Shown piece after piece: positions 5,540 through 62,782 of a stretch of 64,000 bases of DNA. Position numbers and translations under genes: made by a program. This stretch comes from a virus. Each line of letters starts with the position of its first letter. Within the stretch, counting starts at the first letter, position 1. The stretch spans positions 1 to 64,000 of the IMG/VR virus record IMGVR_UViG_3300020596_000014. One strand, 5' to 3'. The notes beneath the pieces were generated by a model, which saw nothing but the letters and a program-made list of their open reading frames with translations, was not told where the DNA came from and made no database searches.

Positions 5540-5852
5540 TGACTGGAGCTTTCTTTTCTTCTTCGTGGTTCCAGGCCGAGGTAAGACGAGCTGCCACAAC
5601 CAAGAGGTTGGCGTGGATTCGTTTGAGCTCCTTGTGGATCTGGATGATCTGATTGTCGTTTGAAGCGAGTGACATCTGGAGGATATTGCCGACAATGCCG
5701 TACGATGTGTTCAATAGGTCCAAGAACTCCTCGACTGTGCTCGCCCCTGTGGTCAGCACGCGATCAATCTTGAGCGCACGCTGCGTGACAAGCACACTGT
5801 AAGTGAGACTCGCTACCAATAGAACCGACAAGATGATGACAGCGATGATCAT
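5526..5852 (-). CDS. Membrane-anchored hypothetical protein
   Basis: MIIAVIILSVLLVASLTYSVLV transmembrane segment; ATGA overlap with the upstream glycosyltransferase. Confidence 0.65.
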   Translation of the reverse strand: MIIAVIILSVLLVASLTYSVLVTQRALKIDRVLTTGASTVEEFLDLLNTSYGIVGNILQMSLASNDNQIIQIHKELKRIHANLLVVAARLTSAWNHEEEKKAPVSDDS

Positions 5853-7045
5853 CCGCTTACCTTGCGAAGCATGTTCTCGAACGTTGCTGACCAGGCTGCA
5901 GCGATCGCGTCTTGACTGTAATTCGCTCGGATCTTTACGCCTAGGTCGCGCGCCCACTCGCGCGGGATGCTGCTTGACGTGTGAAACTTGCGCACTCGAC
6001 GCTTGAAGTCATCTTCGGAAACCTCAGCCCACTTTGCGCCGGCAGGGAAGATGTTGTCGACGCGTTCCTTTGGGATAGGTTGAAGTGTACAAGGGAGGTC
6101 AACGTAGCGGCCGAGACCAAGGAACTCAGTGTGCGCCGACCAGCCGGTGGCAATGACAGGTAGGTCGCAGGCCGCCGCCTCGAGCAACGGGAGGCCAAAT
6201 CCTTCGCCTCGAGTCGCGCTGACAAGCGCCTTTACGTTCGAGTGTCGGTAGAGAGCAGCAACATCGTCGTCATTGAGATCGCCATGCACGAGCTGCAATT
6301 CAGGAAGTTTTCTCGAGGTCTTTGCGGCTACGCTCTTCACGATCAGTCGAACGATGTTCTCGGTGTGATAGGTGTCGAACACCGTTGACCGACCTTGATT
6401 CGTCTTCAGCAGAATGCCAACATCCTCGTCGCCCGCAAACTCCTCAAGCATCCAACGGATCGTGTTATGAAGGTTCTTACGGTCGACTCGGGCATTGTCC
6501 TGCCCTGTCATTTGGCCGAACAAAAGAAAGGTGAACGGGCGGAGTGGGTCGAGCGCTGTCGTGGTAACGTTGGCATTCAACAACGCATTTGGGAAACTTT
6601 CGCCAATCACATGCGCCGCGCCGTCGCGCGGCTTCCAGCCGGCTGCGAGCAAGCTCTTCATTGAATGTTGCGATGGGACGACGACATGATTCATTGCGTC
6701 GCACGATTTTGCCCACTCAGACACAGCGCGATCGGTCTCCACGGCCGCGGTCACGCCAACGTTCACCGTCGCCAGCTGAGGGTCCCACTCGTTGGGTAGT
6801 TGTAGCTGAAAGCTCACGTCGGGCTGTCGAGGCACCTTCTTGCAACGCATCATGAGCGCGTTCACGAGCGGGTCGCGGTCAATGTTCGTGATCCACGTCG
6901 TGATTCCCCATTGGAGGGGCTCACAGTAGAGCTCGATTGAGTCGGCGTTAACTAGTCGCATCAGCCACTCGCCGATCTGGCGAGCATGAGTACCGTAGCC
7001 GGAGAGTGTCAAGATGGGCGCTCGAAGCAGGACGAGCGGTTTCAC
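5849..7045 (-). CDS. Glycosyltransferase, GT4-like (GT-B fold)
   Basis: SGYG N-terminal motif, RKN, and EGFGLPLLEAAAC (EX7E). Confidence 0.9.
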   Translation of the reverse strand: MKPLVLLRAPILTLSGYGTHARQIGEWLMRLVNADSIELYCEPLQWGITTWITNIDRDPLVNALMMRCKKVPRQPDVSFQLQLPNEWDPQLATVNVGVTAAVETDRAVSEWAKSCDAMNHVVVPSQHSMKSLLAAGWKPRDGAAHVIGESFPNALLNANVTTTALDPLRPFTFLLFGQMTGQDNARVDRKNLHNTIRWMLEEFAGDEDVGILLKTNQGRSTVFDTYHTENIVRLIVKSVAAKTSRKLPELQLVHGDLNDDDVAALYRHSNVKALVSATRGEGFGLPLLEAAACDLPVIATGWSAHTEFLGLGRYVDLPCTLQPIPKERVDNIFPAGAKWAEVSEDDFKRRVRKFHTSSSIPREWARDLGVKIRANYSQDAIAAAWSATFENMLRKVSG

Positions 7046-8304
7046 TTGATCACCTTCTTTGTCCAGCGAGGCCTGCGTGAGCGCCAGTTAGTGATCACAT
7101 CTTCTAGTCCTTCGTCCCACGTCTTGATGAGGTTCTCCAAGTTGAACTCCTGATGTGCGTAACGCATGGCCTTGAGACCGAGCTCCTTACGAGCGTCATT
7201 TCCGAGCTTGTACATGTCCCAGTAGGCTTCGGCGACTCTCTCTGGCTTGACGATGTCTTCGACGATATACGGCGTCGCCTGACTGCCGACTAACTTTTTA
7301 CAATCGACGTCGAGCGGGATGCCGTTGAACGTGCCGTCACGGTGGTCGATGACCTGTCGCGTCATGCCACCGGTCTTGACAGCGATGATTGGCTTGCCGC
7401 ACATCATCGCCTCGAGCGTGCCTAGACCGAACCCTTCGGCGTACGAGATGTTGACAACCGCGTCCGTGATACCATAGAGCATGCGCATGTCGTCGAGATT
7501 GAGTTGCTCGCGCGAGAAAACGACGTTGTCATTAAGCTTGAGAATATCGAGCACGTGGAGAAGATTCGGGCCTTCGACATCGTTTGGATCCGTGTGCATC
7601 AACAGCGTGGCCTTTTGGTGACCTTCTTCAGCCTTGAGCTTGTCTAGAAACATCTTGAACGCCCACATCACGTCGGCGGGTCGCTTTCGATGTGCGTTGC
7701 GATTGACCCATGAGACGAGGAAATGATCAACGCGACCAGGGATGAGCTGATTGCGCTTCATTTGTCGCTCGCCATCGCTGATCGGATAGAAAACTTCCTT
7801 GGGGAGGGCGTGCGGCGCCCACTTGACCTTTGCGTCGCCATAAATCGGCTGCAGGAACTCGTACGTCGGCCGATTGATGCAGAAGAACATGTCTACGGTG
7901 TCGTACACGTTCTTGTTGTAGAGCGGCGGGTACTCACACTGGTCCCACAAATGATTGTACACAATGGGGCACACCTGATGGACCTCGTCATGCACCTCAA
8001 ACAGGTTCATAAAGAATCTTGGATCGTTGAATATGACAATTGCGTCAGGTTTCTCGGATGTAATAAGTTGACGGTATAGATTTTTATCTCCAAACCCATC
8101 GATAGGCTTCACGATGATGTCAAAGCCAGGTACCTCGACATTGTCGTATTTGTCATGCTTGATAGCGGCGCCAAGTTGACAGATCTTGTACTTGTTTGTC
8201 ATTGCCAGACCGCATGCCAAATATCTTGATTGCGTTCCGACCCCAGAACATGCCAACAAATTGTCTGAAATAAGAACGATTTTTCGCTTACTCAAGGCGT
8301 TCAA
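7042..8304 (-). CDS. Glycosyltransferase, GT4-like
   Basis: SGVGTQ, NRNAHRKR, EGFGLGTLEAMMCGKPII. Confidence 0.9.
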   Translation of the reverse strand: MNALSKRKIVLISDNLLACSGVGTQSRYLACGLAMTNKYKICQLGAAIKHDKYDNVEVPGFDIIVKPIDGFGDKNLYRQLITSEKPDAIVIFNDPRFFMNLFEVHDEVHQVCPIVYNHLWDQCEYPPLYNKNVYDTVDMFFCINRPTYEFLQPIYGDAKVKWAPHALPKEVFYPISDGERQMKRNQLIPGRVDHFLVSWVNRNAHRKRPADVMWAFKMFLDKLKAEEGHQKATLLMHTDPNDVEGPNLLHVLDILKLNDNVVFSREQLNLDDMRMLYGITDAVVNISYAEGFGLGTLEAMMCGKPIIAVKTGGMTRQVIDHRDGTFNGIPLDVDCKKLVGSQATPYIVEDIVKPERVAEAYWDMYKLGNDARKELGLKAMRYAHQEFNLENLIKTWDEGLEDVITNWRSRRPRWTKKVIK

Positions 8305-9409
8305 GCTCCATCTTGATGGATTCTAGCTGCTCTACTGGGTTCTGTTTCCAATCGCGTTCCCAAACGATATGAACTCTATATCCAGCAGCCTCTAATTCTG
8401 ATTGACGTTTGGCGTCCGAACGCCATTTGTCTTCGACTACCGTCGAATAATCCGAGCCGATCAGATCGTTAAAGTCATATATTTCGGGATTTCCATGCCA
8501 CCAATCTCCATAATATTCAACAACTAGTTTTTGTTCTGGGAACAGACAATCCACGCGACATTTTCGATGACCAAGATTAATAGTTTGCTCCGGAGGTAGT
8601 AAAGTGTAACCAAATTTTGACATTGCTTCGTGAAGTTCTAATTGTCCCTTCGAAGGCCCATTGTGGTACGGACAACCGTAACGTTTGACAATAAGATTGT
8701 TGAACGTTTTGGAAAAAACTCGTTCACAACTCGTACACTTAAACTCTTCGTGTTGGTGAACGTTTCTGATCTTTCGCGGGTTGAGCCACGTTATCTCGTC
8801 ACCGTGAATCTCTTTTATTCGTTTGAGATATTCGAAAGCGTCTACTGACACGTTGTTTAGAAAACATGTTCGACAGCCTCCGCTAGTGGTATGGAGATGA
8901 ACGTAAGGCGTTGTTCTGAACGACAACACACATACCCTACAAGTCAACATCACAGGTCGATGACTAGATTCATACGTTATGATGACGTCGTCGAGCGCAA
9001 AACGTTCGACTCCAAATCGATTTCTTGATCTTTCCACAAAAGATTCAGCTCGTCGCAATCTCGTGGATACATGCGGGTTATTTTTAGACGTTTGCGCAAT
9101 AGTCGCATCTTGAACAATCACTGCGTTCTTGGTTTGCCGCGTCCAATGTGCGTCTCCTTGTGGGACGGGGTTATGTGAATGGATGTAAGTTGCGTAACCG
9201 TATCGCCACCCATTCCACGATGTTTGAGTACCACATCCACAAGCACATGATGGTCGGCTGACGCTGAACAGCAAATCAAAAGCATCTTGCGAAGACAAAT
9301 CATGCGTGATAAGCATGTGTCTCTCGACATTGCTTATTCTTTTTAAACGATCGTCGCAGAAAGAACACAAAGGACAACACAAATTTGGGATGTATTTTAG
9401 TCGTTTCAT
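8288..9409 (-). mobile_element. Free-standing endonuclease with zinc-finger repeats and a C-terminal Vsr/DUF559-like nuclease domain
   Basis: C2H2 finger, CACGCG, several CxxC pairs, then SKGQLEL...VDCL...VVEYYGDWWHG...D.KR...GYRVHIVWE; AT-rich relative to flanks. Confidence 0.8.
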
Positions 9410-16133: not shown

Positions 16134-16991
16134 TCACGCCTCGTAATTTAGCTTATCGAGGGCTGGTTGAACTATTCTGCCCCAATCTTTCATGTTAGGG
16201 TGGGACTTAACAAGAAGTTCGTACACGTCTTCTTCGTGATCGGTCAACCAGGTCAACGCCTTCATCTGCGCTTCGCCGCCTTTTTGAACAGCTTTCACGA
16301 GCTCCGACAACAATTCTACAGGCGCGGGCTCGTTGAGCAGGTCATCGAGTGAATGCCGCGTCTTACTGATGTCGGCATGAGCGCGCTGGAAGCCGTTCTC
16401 GGCGGCGTCTCTTATCATGTCGACGACGTCGTCGCGTGTCCACTCATTCGAAGAAGCCGCTGCCTTGTTGATCACTCGATCTCCTTCTTTTAAGGCTGTC
16501 TCAATGTCGAACCCAACAGGGCCAAGATAGGCAGCCCTGAGGAAGTCGGGGGCATGCTTATCTCTATTAACATCAGCGTCTCGTTCGATCAGTGCGCGGT
16601 TATCCTTGTTTTGCTCAAAGTAGCGTTTGATGACTTGTTGTGCAGCCGGACTAACATTGTTATCGGCGAACACAGACTTCCAATGTTCCAGCGCGCCAGC
16701 TAGCAAAACAACAGAGACGACAGCATTGTCACCGTATAAGAGTTTAAGTCTGTAGTTCCCGTCGTACTCGTGTTTGACCTGTGCGTACCCCAACACCAGT
16801 GGTATCGGCGTTCCCTCATGTACAACGATCTTCGACGTGGAAAGCGCAATCAAGGATACTCTGCCGCTACTACTGCTCTTTAGGAGTGTGAACGCGATGT
16901 GACCAAGCTGTCGGTTCGCGAGTCCAATAACATTAGCCTCTTGAATGAGCTGCGACCGAACGTATTGGCGCAGTTCTTTGAGAGTGACCAT
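16134..16991 (-). CDS. Putative head-packaged protein, possibly with a degenerate GNAT-like domain
   Basis: TACTTA 5 nt upstream; MVTLKELRQYVRSQLIQEA leader; AD..VS.AAQ.V..RY segment. Confidence 0.6.
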   Translation of the reverse strand: MVTLKELRQYVRSQLIQEANVIGLANRQLGHIAFTLLKSSSSGRVSLIALSTSKIVVHEGTPIPLVLGYAQVKHEYDGNYRLKLLYGDNAVVSVVLLAGALEHWKSVFADNNVSPAAQQVIKRYFEQNKDNRALIERDADVNRDKHAPDFLRAAYLGPVGFDIETALKEGDRVINKAAASSNEWTRDDVVDMIRDAAENGFQRAHADISKTRHSLDDLLNEPAPVELLSELVKAVQKGGEAQMKALTWLTDHEEDVYELLVKSHPNMKDWGRIVQPALDKLNYEA

Positions 16992-17009
16992 TGCTCTAAG
17001 TAGAAACGC

Positions 17010-18020
17010 TCACTCGTACACTGTTCTTCTGTTATCGATTGTGCCGTCTAAACAGGCATCAACGAATCCGTCGAGTGTTTTGATGACATATTCCCCAACG
17101 GCCTCGTGAGTCATGAACGGTCGAAGCTTGGCTGCACGTCGTCCGATGTCGGCGCGAATGCCACTGTGAGCGAGAAGATGGTCGATGTTCTTCTCGAGTT
17201 CAACGTAGTTGTAGTCCGGCCTGTAGTCGATCGTCCTGAGAGAAGCGTAATGTTCCCACTCCTTGAGATGCCAACAACAGTTGTTCTGTGGTAGCGCGAG
17301 CACGCACTTTCCAAGCACAATAAACTCGTAGAATTTACGACTCGACACACCGATGCCCGGGAAGTCAAGACACAATTTCGTGCGATTAATGACGTCGTAA
17401 TACTCGTTCGCCGGCATGAGCCCGTCGTACGTGATGATGTTGAGATCCTTGCGACGCTCCTTTATCTCGAGAAGCTTCGCATATCCGATGCGACGGTTGG
17501 TAGGCCAATGTTGGTTAGTGTTGCGGTTCTTGGGCCAGCAGTACGGGTAGTTGTGGTCATGCACCCGACCGCCAACGAAGAGCACGTCGATGTCCTGCTC
17601 GACACTCGGAAGCGAGTCAGCGATCTTGACGATATGGTCAGGATCGTTGGTCATCAACGCAAGTGGGTAAACATCCCGTTTGAATGGATAGAACATGCGC
17701 TGTTCGGAGATAGAAGCGAATTGGATCTTGAAAACCATGTAATCATCCACTTTGTAGTGGTTGATCAGGTTCTGGAAGCGCGTCCAGTTCAACTTACAGT
17801 CAGAAGGCGTGCCGCCAGACCCGTCATCACCATCAAAGAAGCAAAGAAACTTCTTCGCGTCGCGCTCGTACAGGAAACACGACCAATTCTTCCCGAGCGT
17901 CTGCGGCGTCATGTGCTCGTCACGCACGCCGACCGACGCGTTCTTCTTGTATAACTTCTCGAGAAAGTGGACGAGGTGGTCGCGATCGTCGACGCCGTAT
18001 CTTGAGATGGTGCCTTTCAT
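17010..18020 (-). CDS. Glycosyltransferase (Glyco_trans_1_2/CgeB-like)
   Basis: DIDVLFVG...Y..VINRTKLCL..PG.G..S.KFYE....GK. Confidence 0.75.
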   Translation of the reverse strand: MKGTISRYGVDDRDHLVHFLEKLYKKNASVGVRDEHMTPQTLGKNWSCFLYERDAKKFLCFFDGDDGSGGTPSDCKLNWTRFQNLINHYKVDDYMVFKIQFASISEQRMFYPFKRDVYPLALMTNDPDHIVKIADSLPSVEQDIDVLFVGGRVHDHNYPYCWPKNRNTNQHWPTNRRIGYAKLLEIKERRKDLNIITYDGLMPANEYYDVINRTKLCLDFPGIGVSSRKFYEFIVLGKCVLALPQNNCCWHLKEWEHYASLRTIDYRPDYNYVELEKNIDHLLAHSGIRADIGRRAAKLRPFMTHEAVGEYVIKTLDGFVDACLDGTIDNRRTVYE

Positions 18021-54706: not shown

Positions 54707-56565
54707 GTTCTTCCAAACCTTCTCGTGAAGTTCATGTTATCGACGTTCCCGACGCTGGTGGGTTCACTGCTCGATTCGTGTACAATTACCACTCGAAAGA
54801 CGAGGGTACGAAGGCCGACGCCGGTGTGACAAATACCCTTCTCACGAAGTCAGGAGAGTACTTCGACGCGCGTATTATCGATTATTTGGGTTCAGCTCGA
54901 GCACCACGCTACGTGGTACTGACCTGGAAGTCCACAAGCTACCGTGACCGTCTATATGGGCAATCCCCATATTTTCAAGACGACAACGTCCCCAAAAACT
55001 ATATCCGTAATAACTTGTCGAAGATCCTGAGCGAAGAACACTTCAGCTCGGAACAGTTTACAAGCTTCAATATTAGCGATCAAAGTATTGATCGAAAGTT
55101 GTTTACCTATATCTCGGCCTCAGCAAACATCCTGAACGCGCAACGTCAGAATGCTTCAACACAGCACGGACTCGCGCTTCAGACCGCCGCTCTTACCTCA
55201 AATGAGATTGATTTCGATTTCCTGTCCAAATACCTCGTGCAACCCGCTGAGGATGGAGTCTTCTTTTACACACGTGACTCAAATCGTATTCGCAACGAAG
55301 TCGTTAACAAGCTAAAGGGATTCAATATCCAAGTTCAACTTAACAACAGCGTCATCCATACGCTTATCAAGCGAGCCGTTGCGTTCCCGGAATCAACGTT
55401 CGACAGCGTGCACGCGTCAATGTACGAGGTCTCGCGAAAGTTACAAGGGAAGGCGCAGACACGTGGCATGAGAGAACTACGAGCGGACGACTATCGCACC
55501 GTTGCCCCCGAATATGTCAGTCTTCAGACGATGAAGTCTGTCGATCCCGGTCTAGCAACGCGAGCTCGCATCGTAGGGTACATCGTCAATCGCTACGAGA
55601 TGCTCTCGACAGGAGAGAGCGTAGCTCTTGACCCAATCACAGTGGAAAACCCTACAGCTTCGACGACTGTCGATCTCAACGTAAAGTACTACGCACATTA
55701 TCAGTACACGATTCGCTCGGTCGCTGAATTCAGTATTCCTTCAATTGTAGAAGACACTGGTGAACTTGTCGTCTCCAAGTTTCTCATCGCCTCACGCCCA
55801 AGCGCACCGCAATTTGTCTCGTGTGTTGAGATTGTCCCTCCGCCGCCTCCGGCCGACGTGCGTTTCACCTGGGACTGGGACAACGACAAGCTATTCATCA
55901 GCTGGGCCTTCCCCCCGAACTCGCAACGTGACGTCAAGCAATTTCAAGTCTTTCGTCGTCGCACCATAAACGAACCGTTCGAGCTCGTTAAGCAGATCAT
56001 GTTCGACGATTCAACGACCTCGTCACCTTATGCGGAGAAGCCCGATCCTCGTCTGGTCGAGACCGTCGTGAACCCCAAGCTCTATTGGGTGGACGATGAG
56101 TTCACTCGCGAGACCAGCTTTATCTACGCGCTCGGGACGATAGACGCGCACGGGATCGTGTCTGCGTACGGCCCGCAGTCGCAGGTCGTGTATCAGAAGT
56201 ACAAGAACAAGCTCACCGTGACGCGTCTGTCTCCTGGTGGAGCTCCCAAGCCATACCCGAACCTCTATCTCAGCACCGACACGTTTGTCGACAGCGTCGT
56301 TGATTCAAAGAAGCACACGATGAAGATTGCCTTCCAACCGGAGTATGATCGACTCGTCGACAAGCATAACAATGATCTCAACTTCATCGCGACGGAAGAC
56401 AAGGGCGGACGTTACAAGGTGTTGGCGATGAATACCGACCTTGCTGCAGCGCAGACCGTGGAGATCGTGATCAAAGATCGTCGACCAGCCTCGATCGCGC
56501 AGAAGCCGGCTAGCGCCCTTTCTATCCCTGACTACGGTGACAGAGTGTCGAAGCAATCGAAGTGA
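54703..56565 (+). CDS. Putative virion protein with Fn3-like domains
   Basis: D.NVKY...YQY.IR, PPPP.D....W....ISW, IDAHG..S.Y. Confidence 0.7.
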   Translation: MSSSKPSREVHVIDVPDAGGFTARFVYNYHSKDEGTKADAGVTNTLLTKSGEYFDARIIDYLGSARAPRYVVLTWKSTSYRDRLYGQSPYFQDDNVPKNYIRNNLSKILSEEHFSSEQFTSFNISDQSIDRKLFTYISASANILNAQRQNASTQHGLALQTAALTSNEIDFDFLSKYLVQPAEDGVFFYTRDSNRIRNEVVNKLKGFNIQVQLNNSVIHTLIKRAVAFPESTFDSVHASMYEVSRKLQGKAQTRGMRELRADDYRTVAPEYVSLQTMKSVDPGLATRARIVGYIVNRYEMLSTGESVALDPITVENPTASTTVDLNVKYYAHYQYTIRSVAEFSIPSIVEDTGELVVSKFLIASRPSAPQFVSCVEIVPPPPPADVRFTWDWDNDKLFISWAFPPNSQRDVKQFQVFRRRTINEPFELVKQIMFDDSTTSSPYAEKPDPRLVETVVNPKLYWVDDEFTRETSFIYALGTIDAHGIVSAYGPQSQVVYQKYKNKLTVTRLSPGGAPKPYPNLYLSTDTFVDSVVDSKKHTMKIAFQPEYDRLVDKHNNDLNFIATEDKGGRYKVLAMNTDLAAAQTVEIVIKDRRPASIAQKPASALSIPDYGDRVSKQSK

Positions 56566-56840
56566 ACTACAGTGACGAAAATATGAGTCTTCCTATCCCT
56601 ATGTGTCACGCGACCGGCAAAATATGCATCGCCGACAATATCGGTCGGCGCTTGGATGTTGACCTAGAGATGTTCGTTTGTCAACGTTGCGGTCAAGGCT
56701 GGGTGCAGGACACGAGCTCGTGCGCAAGACTGCAGGAATCACTAAAGCGCTTCGAGATCGCGATCAAGAATGTTAACGTGGCACAGGTGAAGATGACAAA
56801 AGCCTTCCAAAAGCTTTCCGACTCGCTTGCAAAGATTTAG
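56562..56840 (+). CDS. Small Cys-containing hypothetical protein
   Basis: 92 aa, CQRC, coupled. Confidence 0.55.
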   Translation: MNYSDENMSLPIPMCHATGKICIADNIGRRLDVDLEMFVCQRCGQGWVQDTSSCARLQESLKRFEIAIKNVNVAQVKMTKAFQKLSDSLAKI

Positions 56841-56842
56841 CG

Positions 56843-57334
56843 ATGAGTGTCATCCTTGATACGGAAGGACGTGGCGCCATCGCTGAGATTTTCGCTGACC
56901 TCAAAATGAAATGTGAGGTGCCGGAAAACAGTGAAGAATGGTTAGCTGCTCTCGTGGCATGGATGGTTGACGACCTAGTCACGTCGCATCATAACGAGGC
57001 CACTTTCGCCGATGCTTTGCAATTAACATGGGTGGTTGGCTCGCGCTTGGAGTCTGAACTCTGTGGACGTTTCAAGAAGATCGTCCCCGTAGTAGCGAAC
57101 GTTTTCCCCTTCGAAGGTCCAAACGGAGAACTCTCAGCCGGCATTACAGATACAGTGATACTTGATCCGATAAACGAAGATCCAAGAGAAATAACGTGCA
57201 CTTTAGCTGCCGAGATCAAGAAGGCTGATCCTAATCATGATACACTTTTCATTTTATCGTTGATCAGGAAGACCATCTTGCTAAACGGCAATTACCGTTA
57301 TGACACGCGCTTCGCGACAGCCAAGACTGTGTAA
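56843..57334 (+). CDS. Hypothetical protein ending Y.TRFAT
   Basis: 163 aa; C-terminus resembles that of the 58820 gene. Confidence 0.6.
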   Translation: MSVILDTEGRGAIAEIFADLKMKCEVPENSEEWLAALVAWMVDDLVTSHHNEATFADALQLTWVVGSRLESELCGRFKKIVPVVANVFPFEGPNGELSAGITDTVILDPINEDPREITCTLAAEIKKADPNHDTLFILSLIRKTILLNGNYRYDTRFATAKTV

Positions 57335-57343
57335 TTACCGTTC

Positions 57344-57745
57344 ATGAACGAACTGGCTATTCGGAAGTATGTGCGACTTGTACTAGAGCGCGCAATAACG
57401 GTCTCTCCCGACCAACTACTCTTGAAGATCAACGCGAGGAATGGTGGATCGATCCCCGCCGACGAGCTCACGTCCGAGGAAACCACCGTGGCTATGTCAC
57501 TTGTCAAGTGTGACTTGCTCCATCACGTCCCGGCCGGTCATGGCATATCAAATGTTGGTGGCATGCGAGGATTCTACGGCGACAACATGACCGTGACTGG
57601 TGGTCGCAATGAGCCAACGCCTGTCGATCCAAAAGTCGCGCATCGATACCCGGAACGCTACGTCGTCACGTCCGGCGGCAGTCACTCGACAGACACTTTC
57701 AAGAGCGACACGCTGCGAGATGAGCTCCCGCGTCGTCGTCGTTAA
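57344..57745 (+). CDS. Putative head-packaged small protein
   Basis: TAATTA upstream; MNELAIRKYVRLVLERA leader. Confidence 0.6.
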   Translation: MNELAIRKYVRLVLERAITVSPDQLLLKINARNGGSIPADELTSEETTVAMSLVKCDLLHHVPAGHGISNVGGMRGFYGDNMTVTGGRNEPTPVDPKVAHRYPERYVVTSGGSHSTDTFKSDTLRDELPRRRR

Positions 57746-57766
57746 GACAGCTATATTGTCGGCAGA

Positions 57767-58525
57767 ATGCACTTCCATTGGCAGAACCTGACCGACGAAC
57801 GCAAGCAACGAACAAAGACCTGGCCATATCACGGGAGAGCGTGGCTTCATCCCGATTCGGGCGCCGTGGATTCCTTCTGTTTCTCATGGAATCTGTGGTC
57901 GCGCTTCTGCGGCGTTTCTTTCTTCGCGTCGTCTGACCGCGAAGACAGTCTCGCAGTCTCGCTCGCTTTCCCACCATTTGCATTCTGGTTCACGATCGAC
58001 GCGCGCAGTTGGTTGCTGCGTTTCGTCACGTGGATAGTCGCTCTTCAACCGTCTGACATGGGGAACAAGTGGTCGGGTCGCGAGTTATCGATCCGCGTGC
58101 ACGACTGGGCGATCTGGTGGAGCGTCTGGGTCGACGACTCTGGTTGGACTAGTTCGCGCTCTAAGTGGCGCGACGGATGCTTTCACTTACTGGGGCACAA
58201 CTGTCGTCAAGGTGACGTAGAGGAGATCCTGACACGCATGGATTACATCCAGATGCCTGAGCGGAAGTACGAATGCAAGGTCACGCTCGAGCGCGTGAGA
58301 TTCGGCTGGGATCGACTTCCTCGCTTCTTCGACAAGATCATCACACGTGGTCATGTCGATATGCTCGACGGCGAACATATCCCGTTCCCGGGTAAGGGGA
58401 CTTGCTCACACAACTGTGACGCCGACGCGATGTACAGTTGGAACGGGCTAGTCGATTCTATCCCAGATGCGCTCGAGAAGGCGGCGGCTAGTGTCACGTG
58501 TGATAGAAAACGGTACCCGCTGTGA
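57767..58525 (+). CDS. Trp-rich hypothetical protein
   Basis: 252 aa; TATATT upstream. Confidence 0.65.
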   Translation: MHFHWQNLTDERKQRTKTWPYHGRAWLHPDSGAVDSFCFSWNLWSRFCGVSFFASSDREDSLAVSLAFPPFAFWFTIDARSWLLRFVTWIVALQPSDMGNKWSGRELSIRVHDWAIWWSVWVDDSGWTSSRSKWRDGCFHLLGHNCRQGDVEEILTRMDYIQMPERKYECKVTLERVRFGWDRLPRFFDKIITRGHVDMLDGEHIPFPGKGTCSHNCDADAMYSWNGLVDSIPDALEKAAASVTCDRKRYPL

Positions 58526-58743
58526 ATCACGAGAACCGCCCTGACTTGCAGATGCTAGCTTTGCTGTTTCTCCTTAGTAAGCAGTCGCCGATGACGCTTG
58601 AGAACCGCACCTGGTTTGTCGAGCTCGGCACAACCATTCTCGACCCTAACGACTTCACACCGCGTGCCACATTGCTCATCAATGGTGTCAAGGTCGACAT
58701 GGTAAACATGATGCAGCTGCAGAACTATCTGATCTGCGCGTGA
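58522..58743 (+). CDS. Hypothetical protein
   Basis: 73 aa, GTGA overlap. Confidence 0.5.
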   Translation: MNHENRPDLQMLALLFLLSKQSPMTLENRTWFVELGTTILDPNDFTPRATLLINGVKVDMVNMMQLQNYLICA

Positions 58744-58819
58744 CGTGAAGACTGATCGTGAAGTTTGATACGACGAGAGTCACGACCGGGCGAGAACTCG
58801 ACTGGGCTAGCCTGTAAAC

Positions 58820-59221
58820 ATGAGCGAAAGCAAGGATTGGGTCATGATTCTGATCAAGAACTGCGTCGACAGTCACTACAAAAACACATTGGGTGTGGAC
58901 AAGCAGCAGGAACTGGCGCAGTTAACGGCTGACGTGTCTGTCGCCGTGAAAGAACTGCTACCTGTCACATTCACGCACGTCGAGACTGTCACGTCGTCTG
59001 AGTTCCAGTACGCTAACGCGCGGGTGTTCGTGAACACCTACGCGGTCTCCGTGACCACCTCAGACTCGCGTGCAAAGAAGGTCGTGGACTTAGCAGAGCA
59101 AGTCGTGCGCATCGCGATGGCAAAAGGCGGCACGCGCTTCTTCCCGTACGTGCTGCTGACGCCGGTCGCCGAGTCGTCGTCTGACCGTGAGTGGTACCAT
59201 ACTAGGTTTGCGACGTCGTGA
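58820..59221 (+). CDS. Small protein with a T4 gp23 (major capsid) C-terminal-like motif
   Basis: FFPYVLLTP...YHTRFA versus T4 gp23 YAPYVALTP...FKTRYG (reference recalled, not searched). Confidence 0.6.
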   Translation: MSESKDWVMILIKNCVDSHYKNTLGVDKQQELAQLTADVSVAVKELLPVTFTHVETVTSSEFQYANARVFVNTYAVSVTTSDSRAKKVVDLAEQVVRIAMAKGGTRFFPYVLLTPVAESSSDREWYHTRFATS

Positions 59222-59532
59222 GAAAGACCAAACTACAGCAACTTCGCATGTCGAAGCGGGAGAACAAGATCTTCTCGTGCCCGGTCTCCAAGCTCAGCGA
59301 ACACGTCGAGGAGCTTAATATGTTGTTCGCCGATGGGTGGCTAGCGGAAGACACAATGGTCACGCACGATCAGTATGTCGTCCTTCTAAAGAAGGAACAT
59401 GAGGGTAAGAAAGTGTTCTACGTTGACGTGACCGGGCTTGCGCAGGATAAAATCAACGAATACATGCTGCGCGTCAAGGAGCTGGTATCCAACCCGGACC
59501 CGGACAGCGATTTCTTCATCCCGTGCAGGTGA
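59218..59532 (+). CDS. Small protein with a T4 gp20 (portal) clip-region-like motif
   Basis: KKVFYVDVTGLAQDKINEYMLRV...DFFIPCR versus gp20 [23 protein letters not shown]...DYWLQRR (reference recalled). Confidence 0.65.
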   Translation: MRKTKLQQLRMSKRENKIFSCPVSKLSEHVEELNMLFADGWLAEDTMVTHDQYVVLLKKEHEGKKVFYVDVTGLAQDKINEYMLRVKELVSNPDPDSDFFIPCR

Positions 59533-59551
59533 GAGACCTAGATTACCGCGC

Positions 59552-59905
59552 ATGAACCTCGACGACCTGGTGGGCGAGACTGTGGACTTCTACGGCGTGG
59601 ACTGCAACGTCTTCTGTGTGCAGACCGAAGACGGCGAGCGCCTCGCGTTCGAAGCCGTTGAGGATGAGAGCGACGGCTACCGCTCAATGCTCGAGGAGGT
59701 GAAACAGGCCCCGCTAGATGGCAACATCTTCTTCGACGCGCCGCTCGCGAGAGTGACGATTAGCGAGGTCAGCGAACCAGGCGGGTTCTCGGGTTACGAG
59801 CTCATGAGCGACGACGGCCACGTGTGGCTGCGCGTTGGCACAAGAAATCACGACGACTGGTACCCGTGCTTCACGTTCAGCTACGATCCGCCGAGAGACT
59901 CGTGA
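59552..59905 (+). CDS. Acidic phage hypothetical protein
   Basis: EAVEDESDGYRSML...GT.N.DDWYPCF; TAGATT upstream. Confidence 0.7.
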   Translation: MNLDDLVGETVDFYGVDCNVFCVQTEDGERLAFEAVEDESDGYRSMLEEVKQAPLDGNIFFDAPLARVTISEVSEPGGFSGYELMSDDGHVWLRVGTRNHDDWYPCFTFSYDPPRDS

Positions 59906-60114
59906 CGAACGCGTATCTGCTGCTGGCGCTCGTCGAGTTGCCGTCGGCGAACTCAACGGTGAAGCTGGAGATCAGTCGCACGTACTATGAACTCGAAGAC
60001 TTCTGTTCTCGCAAAAGTGTTCGAGTCAACGACTCTCAAGTCTTTACGGTCACGCAGGCGGAGCTTGACGCCGCGCAGGTAAGCTCCGAGTCGTACAGCA
60101 AGTACGTGGTCTAA
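59902..60114 (+). CDS. Hypothetical protein
   Basis: GTGA-coupled, 70 aa. Confidence 0.5.
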   Translation: MTNAYLLLALVELPSANSTVKLEISRTYYELEDFCSRKSVRVNDSQVFTVTQAELDAAQVSSESYSKYVV

Positions 60115-60151
60115 TAGTTCGCTGGTTGTGGTGGAAGCCTAATTACATCAT

Positions 60152-60700
60152 GTGCGCATCCTCAAGAAGCCATTAGCGCCGTCAGGCGATCTCTGGTTCC
60201 AACACAAGAGCCCGCACGGACCGTTCAACAGACTTGAGTCGCAGACGTACGAGACGCTGATCGATCAGCGCTCGGAGGACATGGACCCTGAGAACGCCGT
60301 TTACTACGTCGAAGAACGTGAAGAACACGAGATGCTTTACCACGAGCTGCTCGGCAGCGACGCGAGTCATAGCTTCACATATGCTACCATCGTAGGCTTT
60401 GAACTTATGGAGTCACCTGAGGATTACCCGGGCAACACACATTACTTTAAGCTGACAATACAACAGCTCAATGAATGTGTATTTGAACTCATTGCGGGAA
60501 AAGATCACGCGTTGGACGTTGAACCGTCTGTTGGTATGAAAGGTTTGCTAGCGTGCACCACAGCCTGGTCGGCTCATTCCGAAGAGTACGAGCCGTACCA
60601 GGACGATGTTGTGGGAGGAACAATTGACCCGCGCATCGAAGTCATCATCCCGTTTACAGTGGGGGTGCTAGCTGTGTACCCTGAGAAAGAGCTCCGCTAG
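60152..60700 (+). CDS. Acidic hypothetical protein
   Basis: TAATTA 6 nt before GTG; 182 aa. Confidence 0.6.
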   Translation: MRILKKPLAPSGDLWFQHKSPHGPFNRLESQTYETLIDQRSEDMDPENAVYYVEEREEHEMLYHELLGSDASHSFTYATIVGFELMESPEDYPGNTHYFKLTIQQLNECVFELIAGKDHALDVEPSVGMKGLLACTTAWSAHSEEYEPYQDDVVGGTIDPRIEVIIPFTVGVLAVYPEKELR

Positions 60701-60755
60701 TCGTTGACAGTCATATATGACCGCTAGCGAGTAGCCTCGATGCGTGCCGCTCGAC

Positions 60756-61094
60756 TCAGAGCGGGTCGCCCTCGCGTGCCGCTTCCTCGTCCCATACCTC
60801 CAAGAGGATCTCGTCAAACCTATCGCGGTATTGCATTTCTAGTTCCCCGGCCCGTTCGAGGCGATCCATCGCGTCGTCCATAATCTTGTCGGGCATATCA
60901 TCAGGATCCGGGTATCTGTCGGTGAGCGCTGCTACCTGCGCGTCCCAATCGTGGTTGAGCAATTGTGAGTCAGGCTGTTCCTTCAGCCAAGCGCGCGCCC
61001 GCCTTCTAGCCTCGATATACGAGGGACAAAAGAAATGTCCTGCGTCTGACTGATCGGTCCCCTCGATACGGTTGCAGCCACGTTCACGCGTCAT
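60756..61094 (-). CDS. Hypothetical protein
   Basis: 112 aa, ATGA-coupled. Confidence 0.55.
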   Translation of the reverse strand: MTRERGCNRIEGTDQSDAGHFFCPSYIEARRRARAWLKEQPDSQLLNHDWDAQVAALTDRYPDPDDMPDKIMDDAMDRLERAGELEMQYRDRFDEILLEVWDEEAAREGDPL

Positions 61095-61792
61095 CGCTTC
61101 GTACTTCTAGAGAGCGAACGCTTCTTCGTTGTCGGAGGCGATGACCTTCGGGCTACCCAGGTATCCACGCGAGACTGTTCCGCTGCTTTTTCATGTGTCA
61201 CAGCGTCTGTTGCGGCTTTTTTCTGCGCGGCTTCTGCCGCCTCCACCGCGATCTGCAATGCCGGGGTGATGACGTTAATGATCTCTGCCCACCACGGACC
61301 ATCCTCAAAGTGCCACGGAGCGTTCATGTAGACCTGCTTCCAGTGACGGGGCTCGTCACAATTACTATTGGGATACCCTCCAACAGGTACCGGGCCGCCA
61401 AGAACGACATGTATCTCGCCGCCAATCGTTAGATTGCCAGGATCATCGTGATACGGGACATAGGCAATATCTCGGTGCTCCCCTAGAACTATAGCCGTCG
61501 CGCGATAGCCAATGTTGATGCGCTCTCCAACTCTGCCATCGGCTCGATACAGCCGAGCCATGAGAGTGCACAGGGCATTACCCGGTGCGCGTTGCAGCTC
61601 TCCGTCCGCGTAGGCTTTCACTAGCGCAGCTTGGCTCGCCAGCCACTCCGCGCTAGGGACATAGATCGGTTCCGGATGCGCCAAGGCGTACGCGCGATTC
61701 TTTGCGATTGCTTTTTTCCATCGTTCACTACATGCCATCTGATTCGTCCTCAGTGTTGATTCGTCAACGCCTTTAGGAGCTAAGAGCAACAT
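61091..61792 (-). CDS. Hypothetical protein
   Basis: 233 aa ORF. Confidence 0.55.
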   Translation of the reverse strand: MLLLAPKGVDESTLRTNQMACSERWKKAIAKNRAYALAHPEPIYVPSAEWLASQAALVKAYADGELQRAPGNALCTLMARLYRADGRVGERINIGYRATAIVLGEHRDIAYVPYHDDPGNLTIGGEIHVVLGGPVPVGGYPNSNCDEPRHWKQVYMNAPWHFEDGPWWAEIINVITPALQIAVEAAEAAQKKAATDAVTHEKAAEQSRVDTWVARRSSPPTTKKRSLSRSTKR

Positions 61793-61879: not shown

Positions 61880-62782
61880 GTGACATCTTTCATCATCTAC
61901 CTGATCACATGCACCGTCAACGGCAAAAAGTACGTTGGCCAGTCCGAGGTGCCTCTCGAAGAACGTTGGCAGAAGCATGTTGCAAGCTCGCGTTGCCCCA
62001 CATCGAAGGCTTACAAGAAGATGTCGATCGTTCGAGCGATCGCGAAGCATGGTTCTGAGAACTTCATTAGAGAAGTGATCGAGAAGTGTTCCTCTTACGA
62101 CGCGATGGACGTCGCCGAGATCGACTGGATTGCGAAGCTTGAGCTGACGAACCCGGACGTTGGTTACAACATCGCGAAGGGAGGCAACGCTCCGATGCGC
62201 GGTCGAAAGCACACGGCGGCCTCAAAGGCTCTGATGCGTATGGCGAAGCTCAATCCGACGGACGAGACTCGAGCGTCGTTGAAGGCTGGGCAGGCGAGAG
62301 CTAATGCCGATCCAGAGACAATACAGAGGAAGGTCGAAGCCGCGAAGCGGCGCGGTGTGCACTCGAAGCTTCTGGAAGGTCATGCTCGCTTCTTTGAGAA
62401 CGGTATGCCGGAAGAGACGAAGCAGAAGTTGAGCGTCGCGATGTCAGGTGAGAAGAACGCGAACTACGGGAAGCCGGTACCTGCCGAGCGAAAGAAGAAG
62501 CTTTCGGCTGCCCATCAAGGTAAAATCTTGTCAACTGAACACAAAGCAGCCATTGCTCGCGGAGTCGTCGGGAAGTGTTCGTCGCGCGGTCTCAACCGTC
62601 GCCCTGTGCACGTTTACGAGAACGATGAGCACGTTGCTAGCTACCTCAGGCTAGAGTTCGTAGCTGAAGACATGGGCGTCAGCGTCAAAACGTTGCGAGC
62701 TTGGTTGTGCTCTGGGAAGAAATTCGGCAACCGTCGCTACGTACAAGACGAAAGTACGATCAGCGCATTGCGCTCTAAGTAA
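61880..62782 (+). mobile_element. GIY-YIG homing endonuclease with NUMOD3 repeats and C-terminal HTH
   Basis: IIY...YVG, RW..H, E..WI, GYN...GG; repeats of ETKQKLS and EHKAAI; RPV C-terminal domain. Confidence 0.9.

Follow-up and report, generated by a model that had tools for sequence, protein, structure and literature searches.

The satellite proteins Ppi (SaPI) and Rpp (PICI) are small proteins that have been proposed or shown to bind the packaging machinery and to redirect or block packaging, with the small terminase as their target; they are satellite-encoded and have no portal origin. In phage T4, the clip domain of the portal protein gp20 is described as spanning residues 279-358, with three strands and helix alpha6 and with a sheet to which one subunit contributes a single strand and the adjacent subunit two (PMC4493910). 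The same structural account has the clip protruding outside the capsid as the attachment place of gp17 and later of the neck, puts gp17 contacts at the clip tip on N291, M292, R295 and K296, and reports that a 24-residue gp20 peptide, 288-311, binds gp17 and inhibits packaging (PMC4493910, citing Lin, Rao & Black 1999). Bacterial defences have been described at portals as well: SpbK of ICEBs1 is reported to bind the clip domain of the SPbeta portal YonE, with an escape mutation in the clip; oligomerisation is proposed as a condition for its activation, which also seems to depend on clustering at the portal ring (PMC11984713). Avs4 and Avs11 are reported to sense portals, and Avs sensors are described as reading whole folds across extended interfaces (bioRxiv 10.64898/2026.01.04.697583).

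We analysed a window of 64,000 nucleotides from the start of an IMG/VR virus record (132,549 bp, rated 36% complete), in which the original prediction had placed two small GTGA-overlapping genes, for proteins of 133 and 104 amino acids (aa), outside any head gene cluster. Both ORFs are present, as are the C-terminal strings quoted for their products, and no head genes were found within the 64-kb window. Full-length portal and capsid genes were expected elsewhere in the genome, and both are located further along the same record, as is the TerL gene, with the portal and capsid genes 21-31 kb downstream of the 104-aa ORF. We refer to the 104-aa protein as the mini-portal.

58820-59221, + strand: 133-aa ORF, ATG start, the "mini-capsid" of the original prediction
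59218-59532, + strand: 104-aa ORF, GTG start, the mini-portal
59218-59221, + strand: GTGA overlap of the 133-aa ORF stop with the 104-aa ORF start
59218-59391, + strand: mini-portal residues 1-58, with a basic N-terminus and a predicted beta-alpha-beta-beta unit
59392-59529, + strand: mini-portal residues 59-104, the clip-derived module (from hhalign, Pfam Portal_T4 and the T4 gp20 alignment)
77966-79660, same record, beyond the window: TerL gene
80178-82760, same record, beyond the window: T4-type portal, 860 aa (PF07230 at 1e-63), with an intein (PF14890) inside
88622-90532, same record, beyond the window: gp23-type major capsid protein (MCP), 636 aa (PF07068 at 4e-76)

Judged by its capsid protein, the virus is a deep-branching T4-like virus. 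The best GenBank match of the MCP was Microcystis phage Mel-JY01 at 34% identity, followed by very large metagenomic phages. A blastn search of GenBank phages with positions 56500-61000 gave no match, and from four DNA sequencing runs came nothing but short contigs of low depth, each identical to some part of the stretch, and no joints.

The proposed resemblance of the 104-aa protein to portals was borne out by pairwise and profile comparisons. BLASTP matched mini-portal residues 64-87 to residues 246-269 of the portal of the same genome with 13/24 identities (E 9e-6), and hhalign of the mini-portal family against a three-portal alignment gave 97.3% probability over 46 columns (E 2.3e-11), placing residues 59-104 on portal residues 241-303 with one 16-residue deletion, the clip hairpin. 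It follows from the hhalign alignment that the homology comprises 46 residues and ends exactly at the invariant last Arg of the family. The module contains the clip strand, helix alpha6 and a return segment ending at this conserved Arg. When the family HMM was run unfiltered against 2212 stop-to-stop frames drawn from this genome and four related loci, only two portals were recovered beyond the family itself, that of locus L010 (6.3e-8) and the genome's own (1.6e-5), and the next match had an E-value of 2.1. The L010 portal, which is full-length at 650 aa, matched mini-portal residues 42-104 at 35% identity. Across a 28-residue core, mini-portals and portals were 43-64% identical, each mini-portal sharing 12-16 of the 28 residues with the portal of its own lineage, and the 44-residue block added only 0-4 identities over that core; resemblance to portals fades N-terminal of mini-portal residue 59.

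All seven mini-portal homologues matched Pfam Portal_T4 at one place (E 5.5e-6 to 0.027), with residues 61/64-90/92 on profile positions 203/206-232/234, or about 29 of the 433 profile positions. The gathering score was exceeded by only one of the seven, and the window's own mini-portal did not reach E<=1 against this profile. In a profile search of PDB sequences, the family aligned ungapped over residues 49-92 to T4 gp20 267-310, a weak match (E 0.16-0.19, with an unrelated protein ranked above it) that is consistent with the other alignments.

These comparisons describe a novel architecture containing a portal-derived module. The mini-portal has no wing, stem, crown or tunnel loop and, because none of the ring architecture is present, it is not a functional member of the portal family and cannot be a portal. 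Its N-terminal 58 residues are new, with no portal counterpart. The proposal that intact head-protein pieces had been placed on new N-termini at this locus stands for the 104-aa protein, with its portal piece at residues 59-104, and does not extend to the 133-aa protein, in which we found no gp23 similarity.

The portal intein (PF14890, ~171 residues; L004:17060-17572, about 81060-81572 in G000) interrupts the portal clip domain directly ahead of the return segment, a conserved acidic-aromatic stretch. We considered and rejected a connection of the mini-portal to this intein, since the relative G002 has a mini-portal together with an intein-less portal, which is 86% and 77% identical to the window genome's own portal on the two sides of the intein site.

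A word-index search returned the seven mini-portal homologues, which were 61-73% identical to the window's protein and 103-104 aa long where complete, two entries of 94 aa being called from Met11. Two of them (L008 and L011) have ATG at the codon equivalent to the window's GTG start. Conservation within the family is 88-94% in each of four segments (the first 13 residues, the strand, the helix and the C-terminus), and the majority fraction reaches 0.94 in the strand and 0.89 in the helix compared to 0.51 in residues 72-81, the most variable part. No match to the mini-portal was obtained from GenBank phages by tblastn at E<=0.01, and the family was not found in genome_contigs. One PHROG family of unassigned function, phrog_23805 (72 positions), matched residues 58-102 of the window's mini-portal (E 2e-4), and because this match falls on the portal-like module, isolated phages may hold similar small clip-like proteins.

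Structure prediction added little to this picture. The AF2 model of the mini-portal was poor (pLDDT 57), with low-confidence strands at residues 15-22, 41-49 and 52-59 and a helix at 23-38. Foldseek with this model gave 0 matches in the PDB at E<=0.001. A wide VIA-align search reached a best Z of 5.3; its matches were of a generic beta-alpha-beta-beta kind and confined to residues 6-63, with no portal prominent, and the ESM Atlas gave only sub-0.9 matches to small viral clusters and DUF4177/DUF2510-like N-terminal matches (TM <0.5). These structure searches hardly probe the portal-like part of the protein, where model confidence is low.

In T4 numbering, the copied stretch corresponds to about gp20 282-310 plus the return segment and overlaps the 288-311 peptide, and the hairpin absent from the mini-portal is the one that pairs with the neighbouring subunit in the portal ring. 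Read from the family alignment, the equivalent of M292 is Met or Leu in 8/8 mini-portals and that of N291 is Asn in 3/8, while the equivalents of R295 and K296 are mostly acidic or neutral, positions at which own-lineage portals also differ from T4.

As the leading explanation, held tentatively, we suggest that the mini-portal is a domesticated T4-type portal fragment acting as a soluble mimic of the clip tip. As the alignments show, a new N-terminal part of some 58 residues precedes 46 residues copied from the clip, which comprise its strand, helix alpha6 and return segment and have the hairpin deleted. We infer that the clip of these phages is, as in T4, the portal's exposed docking site, used by the large terminase and afterwards by the neck, so that a soluble, non-ring-forming mimic of the docking tip could compete for a clip-binding partner, with the large terminase as the leading candidate ahead of a clip-sensing host defence. 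The outcome would be that DNA packaging is delayed or blocked, be it the phage's own, as a form of timing control, or that of a co-infecting relative. Clip-tip mimicry appears the most likely of the readings considered because the clip is a docking site and the copied stretch overlaps the gp17-binding peptide.

A conserved contact with the phage's own TerL fits poorly with the variability of the tip: residues 72-81, where the T4 gp17-contact positions fall, vary more than any other part of the family, yet the TerL of relatives is 70-86% identical (and mostly 60-86% identical to this genome's TerL across a 38-row alignment that includes the closest relatives). The absence of the T4 basic contact residues from the mini-portals likewise counts against such a contact. 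A variable target, such as the TerL of competitors or a host sensor, would be easier to reconcile with a tip that evolves fast while its scaffold is conserved. A complex prediction for TerL (with the 38-row alignment) and the mini-portal family, run without controls, scored 0.00 and counts neither way on binding.

Alternatively, the mini-portal could act as an immune decoy, a soluble monomeric clip mimic that would occupy a portal-clip sensor and thereby prevent its clustering on the 12-fold ring and its firing. Portals are known triggers of host defences, the reports on SpbK, Avs4 and Avs11 provide portal-sensing precedents, and SpbK is reported to read the clip itself. The fast-evolving tip would fit an arms race, and the location of the gene in a shuffled block of small accessory genes is also consistent with such a role. 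However, a 46-residue piece could not offer the extended interface that Avs sensors are described as reading, and with only 12-16/28 identity to the portal core of its own lineage the mini-portal would be a poor decoy copy. We regard immune decoy as unlikely.

A further explanation, to which we give slightly less credence, is that the mini-portal modulates portal or neck assembly, its strand complementing the clip hairpin of unassembled portal subunits, or neck proteins, by beta-sheet pairing. It might then help the phage's own portal to assemble, as a chaperone, or poison the portals of co-infecting relatives by terminating the growing chain. The T4 clip sheet is described as mixing strands of two subunits (PMC4493910), and of these elements the mini-portal retains one strand, conserved at 94%, but not the hairpin of 16 residues, with conservation falling on the structural core and not on the exposed tip. 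The family is also at least as near to the L010-type portal as to its own (HMM 6.3e-8 vs 1.6e-5), and its C-terminal motif agrees at 4-6/8 positions with the L010-type portal compared to 2-5/8 with its own. Against pairing of this kind, the N-terminal hairpin predicted at low confidence by AF2 could satisfy the strand in cis, and there are no wing or crown contacts that would hold the mini-portal in a ring.

The mini-portal was intact and frameshift-free in eight sequence clusters, and its frame, length, start position and non-portal N-terminus are all kept among homologues. At the codon level, comparison of the window's gene with four homologues (L008, L009, L011 and L014) gave pN of 0.19-0.24 vs pS of 0.57-0.70, or dN/dS of about 0.14-0.22 with dS near saturation. 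The 28-codon core and the corresponding part of the genome's own portal were identical at 43/84 nucleotides (51% at the DNA level) and used the same codon at only 7 of the 13 identical residues, which shows the duplication to be old. Purifying selection thus preserves the intact mini-portal gene in eight or more sequence clusters within one clade of uncultivated T4-like phages, and its module is very probably both portal-derived and functional. For this gene the selection envisaged in the original prediction was seen, and neither a lack of profile similarity nor neutral decay, which that prediction had named as evidence against itself, was found. Recombination debris, that is, a leftover portal fragment without a function of its own, would agree with the shortness of the homologous stretch and with the rearranged region near GIY-YIG homing endonuclease genes, but pN lies far below pS and all eight clusters hold an intact gene with conserved length, start position and non-portal N-terminus, which makes debris very improbable.

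Genes are gained and lost frequently in the mini-portal region, which has the following features in the window and in two related loci.

57767-58525, 59552-59905, 60152-60700 and 60756-61792 (the last on the - strand): ORFs in the window, missing from the L008/L009 lineage
58522-58743 and 59824-60114 in the window; 5710-5991 and 6333-6614 in L008; 1386-1712 and 2267-2509 in L011: small flanking ORFs
61880-62782, + strand: GIY-YIG homing endonuclease gene in the window (phrog_314, 5.6e-35)
7640-8413 and 6479-6709 in L008: GIY-YIG-related sites

The GIY-YIG gene of L008 is at a different spot from that of the window and L009 is without it, and both L008 and L009 carry what appears by eye to be a short GIY-YIG N-terminal remnant. 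Small, paralogous-looking ORFs (~70-110 aa, by eye) flank the mini-portal on both sides in every context; they have in common an N-terminal hydrophobic helix and an acidic Glu-Asp-Phe (or Asp-Asp-Phe) stretch, and their order varies. Two of the window's ORFs, of 252 and 117 aa, have homologues in L011 in changed order, and a weak match of the 252-aa ORF to phrog_20814 was the sole family hint among the ORFs missing from L008 and L009.

The 133-aa ORF had been read as a miniature of the capsid protein, on account of its C-terminal end, and this resemblance proved to be at chance level. BLASTP of the 133-aa protein against the genome's own MCP gave a best E-value of 0.2, in a stretch other than the claimed motif, and the Gp23 profile (PF07068) matched 0/3 members of the 133-aa family at E<=10. 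The family HMM, run unfiltered (--max), did not match the MCP at E<=10, and hhalign against a six-MCP alignment gave a probability of 0.35% (E 0.17) over 13 columns on the claimed motif. A PDB profile search with the family returned nothing relevant. An exhaustive HMMER search identified two true homologues, P0010 (147 aa, 46% identical) and P0011 (145 aa, 41% identical), which share the N-terminal start and a hydrophobic Pro-Tyr motif with the 133-aa protein and do not keep the C-terminal motif likened to gp23. The family was not found in viral_contigs or genome_contigs. Structure prediction was poor (AF2 pLDDT 45), and the ESM Atlas (pLDDT 0.44) gave only generic ferredoxin-like neighbours at TM of about 0.5 and no usable feature match. 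The 133-aa ORF thus appears, from its sequence relatives, to be a real, lineage-restricted small accessory gene that is not capsid-derived.

Two further candidates for relatedness were rejected. P0012 and P0013, both rich in repeats, owed their scores to several separate stretches and were discarded as artefacts of the homologue search with the 133-aa protein. A C-terminal motif in common with the 163-aa ORF at 56843-57334 was at chance level (E 0.064; the family HMM gave E 1.2 against the L008 homologue of that ORF).

The coupling of the two genes did not hold up across relatives. The gene upstream of the mini-portal differs in all three readable contexts, namely the window, L011 and the lineage of L008, L009, L012, L013 and L014, and the order of the small genes around it is shuffled between them. 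In L011 the mini-portal has an ATGA overlap with a different gene, and in L008 it follows its upstream neighbour after a 9-nt gap. Because the mini-portal abuts or overlaps whatever gene precedes it, the GTGA overlap is best understood as ordinary tight packing and not as a dedicated operon, and because none of the related loci holds the 133-aa gene (no homologue in 7 loci by tblastn at E<=10), its pairing with the mini-portal is incidental; the coupling would be an accident of gene order in one genome. The promoter suggested for the pair fared no better. The -10-like hexamer TAGCCT at about 58809-58814 matches TATAAT at 3/6 positions, a sigma-70 scan of the + strand of 56400-61000 found 0 sites, and the consensus T4 late-promoter octamer had 0 occurrences in the window. 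The full original model, in which both genes encode miniature head proteins in a coupled decoy operon, can draw on the GTGA overlap in this genome and on the short MCP C-terminal motif being hhalign's best, though insignificant, alignment, but is hardly credible given a 133-aa protein without significant capsid similarity whose gene is missing beside every other mini-portal examined. The functions put forward in that model, sensor decoy or dominant-negative inhibitor, may still apply to the mini-portal, and to it alone.

A capsid-derived small gene does exist in relatives of this virus. Searching them with the capsid protein revealed an ORF of 232 aa in G001 and G002.

L021:1348-2046 (G002), - strand: 232-aa capsid-derived gene, also in G001 (L020/L030)
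L031:2492-3190, on another viral contig: relative of the 232-aa gene, 33% identical

Over MCP residues 448-562 the L021 protein shows 49% identity (E 2e-33), and its end resembles the C-terminal end of the MCP. Its gene neighbourhood in the relatives is a glycan-gene island. The gene is absent from the syntenic site in the window (16991-17010), where homologues of its flanking genes abut (16137-16991 and 17025-18020), and from the rest of the record. The general idea of head-protein pieces grafted onto new N-termini thus holds in the clade, in the form of the mini-portal here and of the 232-aa gene in relatives.

Returning to clip-tip mimicry, we offer a broader reading that joins the two proteins, as a speculation with only a small chance of being right as a whole. 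This T4-like clade would make small effectors from pieces of its own head genes, the docking tip of the portal and, in relatives, a C-terminal piece of the capsid protein. The mini-portal would then be a natural counterpart of the inhibitory gp20 peptide, jamming either the docking of terminase on portal in competing phages or a host defence that senses the clip, while its fast-evolving tip tracks the target.

A full-text literature search with partial coverage found no paper describing a clip protein that occurs naturally by itself. The clip is the docking place of the packaging motor and neck of tailed phages and is sensed by at least one bacterial defence. A free-standing clip tip shaped by natural selection would serve directly as a probe of how portal and terminase recognise each other, at an interface whose structure in T4-like phages is so far poorly resolved. 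If the mini-portal were active on other phages or on host sensors, it would represent a new class of phage weapon made from a phage's own structural gene.

Among described systems, the mini-portal is close to T4 gp20 (PF07230), with residues 59-104 aligning to the clip strand, helix alpha6 and the return segment up to the inner-clip Arg; T4-type portals are 520-860 aa long, whereas the mini-portal has 104 aa and the clip hairpin deleted. Like the gp20 peptide 288-311, whose mode of action it would share, it spans this same clip stretch and has Met or Leu at the Met292-equivalent position throughout (8/8), and unlike that synthetic peptide it is natural, genome-encoded, selected and joined to an added domain, and the basic contacts of T4 are not conserved in it. 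The 232-aa capsid-derived protein resembles it in combining a new N-terminus with a head-protein piece in the same phage clade, and differs in its gp23 origin, its place in a glycan-gene island and its absence from the window's record. Finally, the mini-portal is both portal-derived and phage-encoded, whereas Ppi and Rpp are neither.
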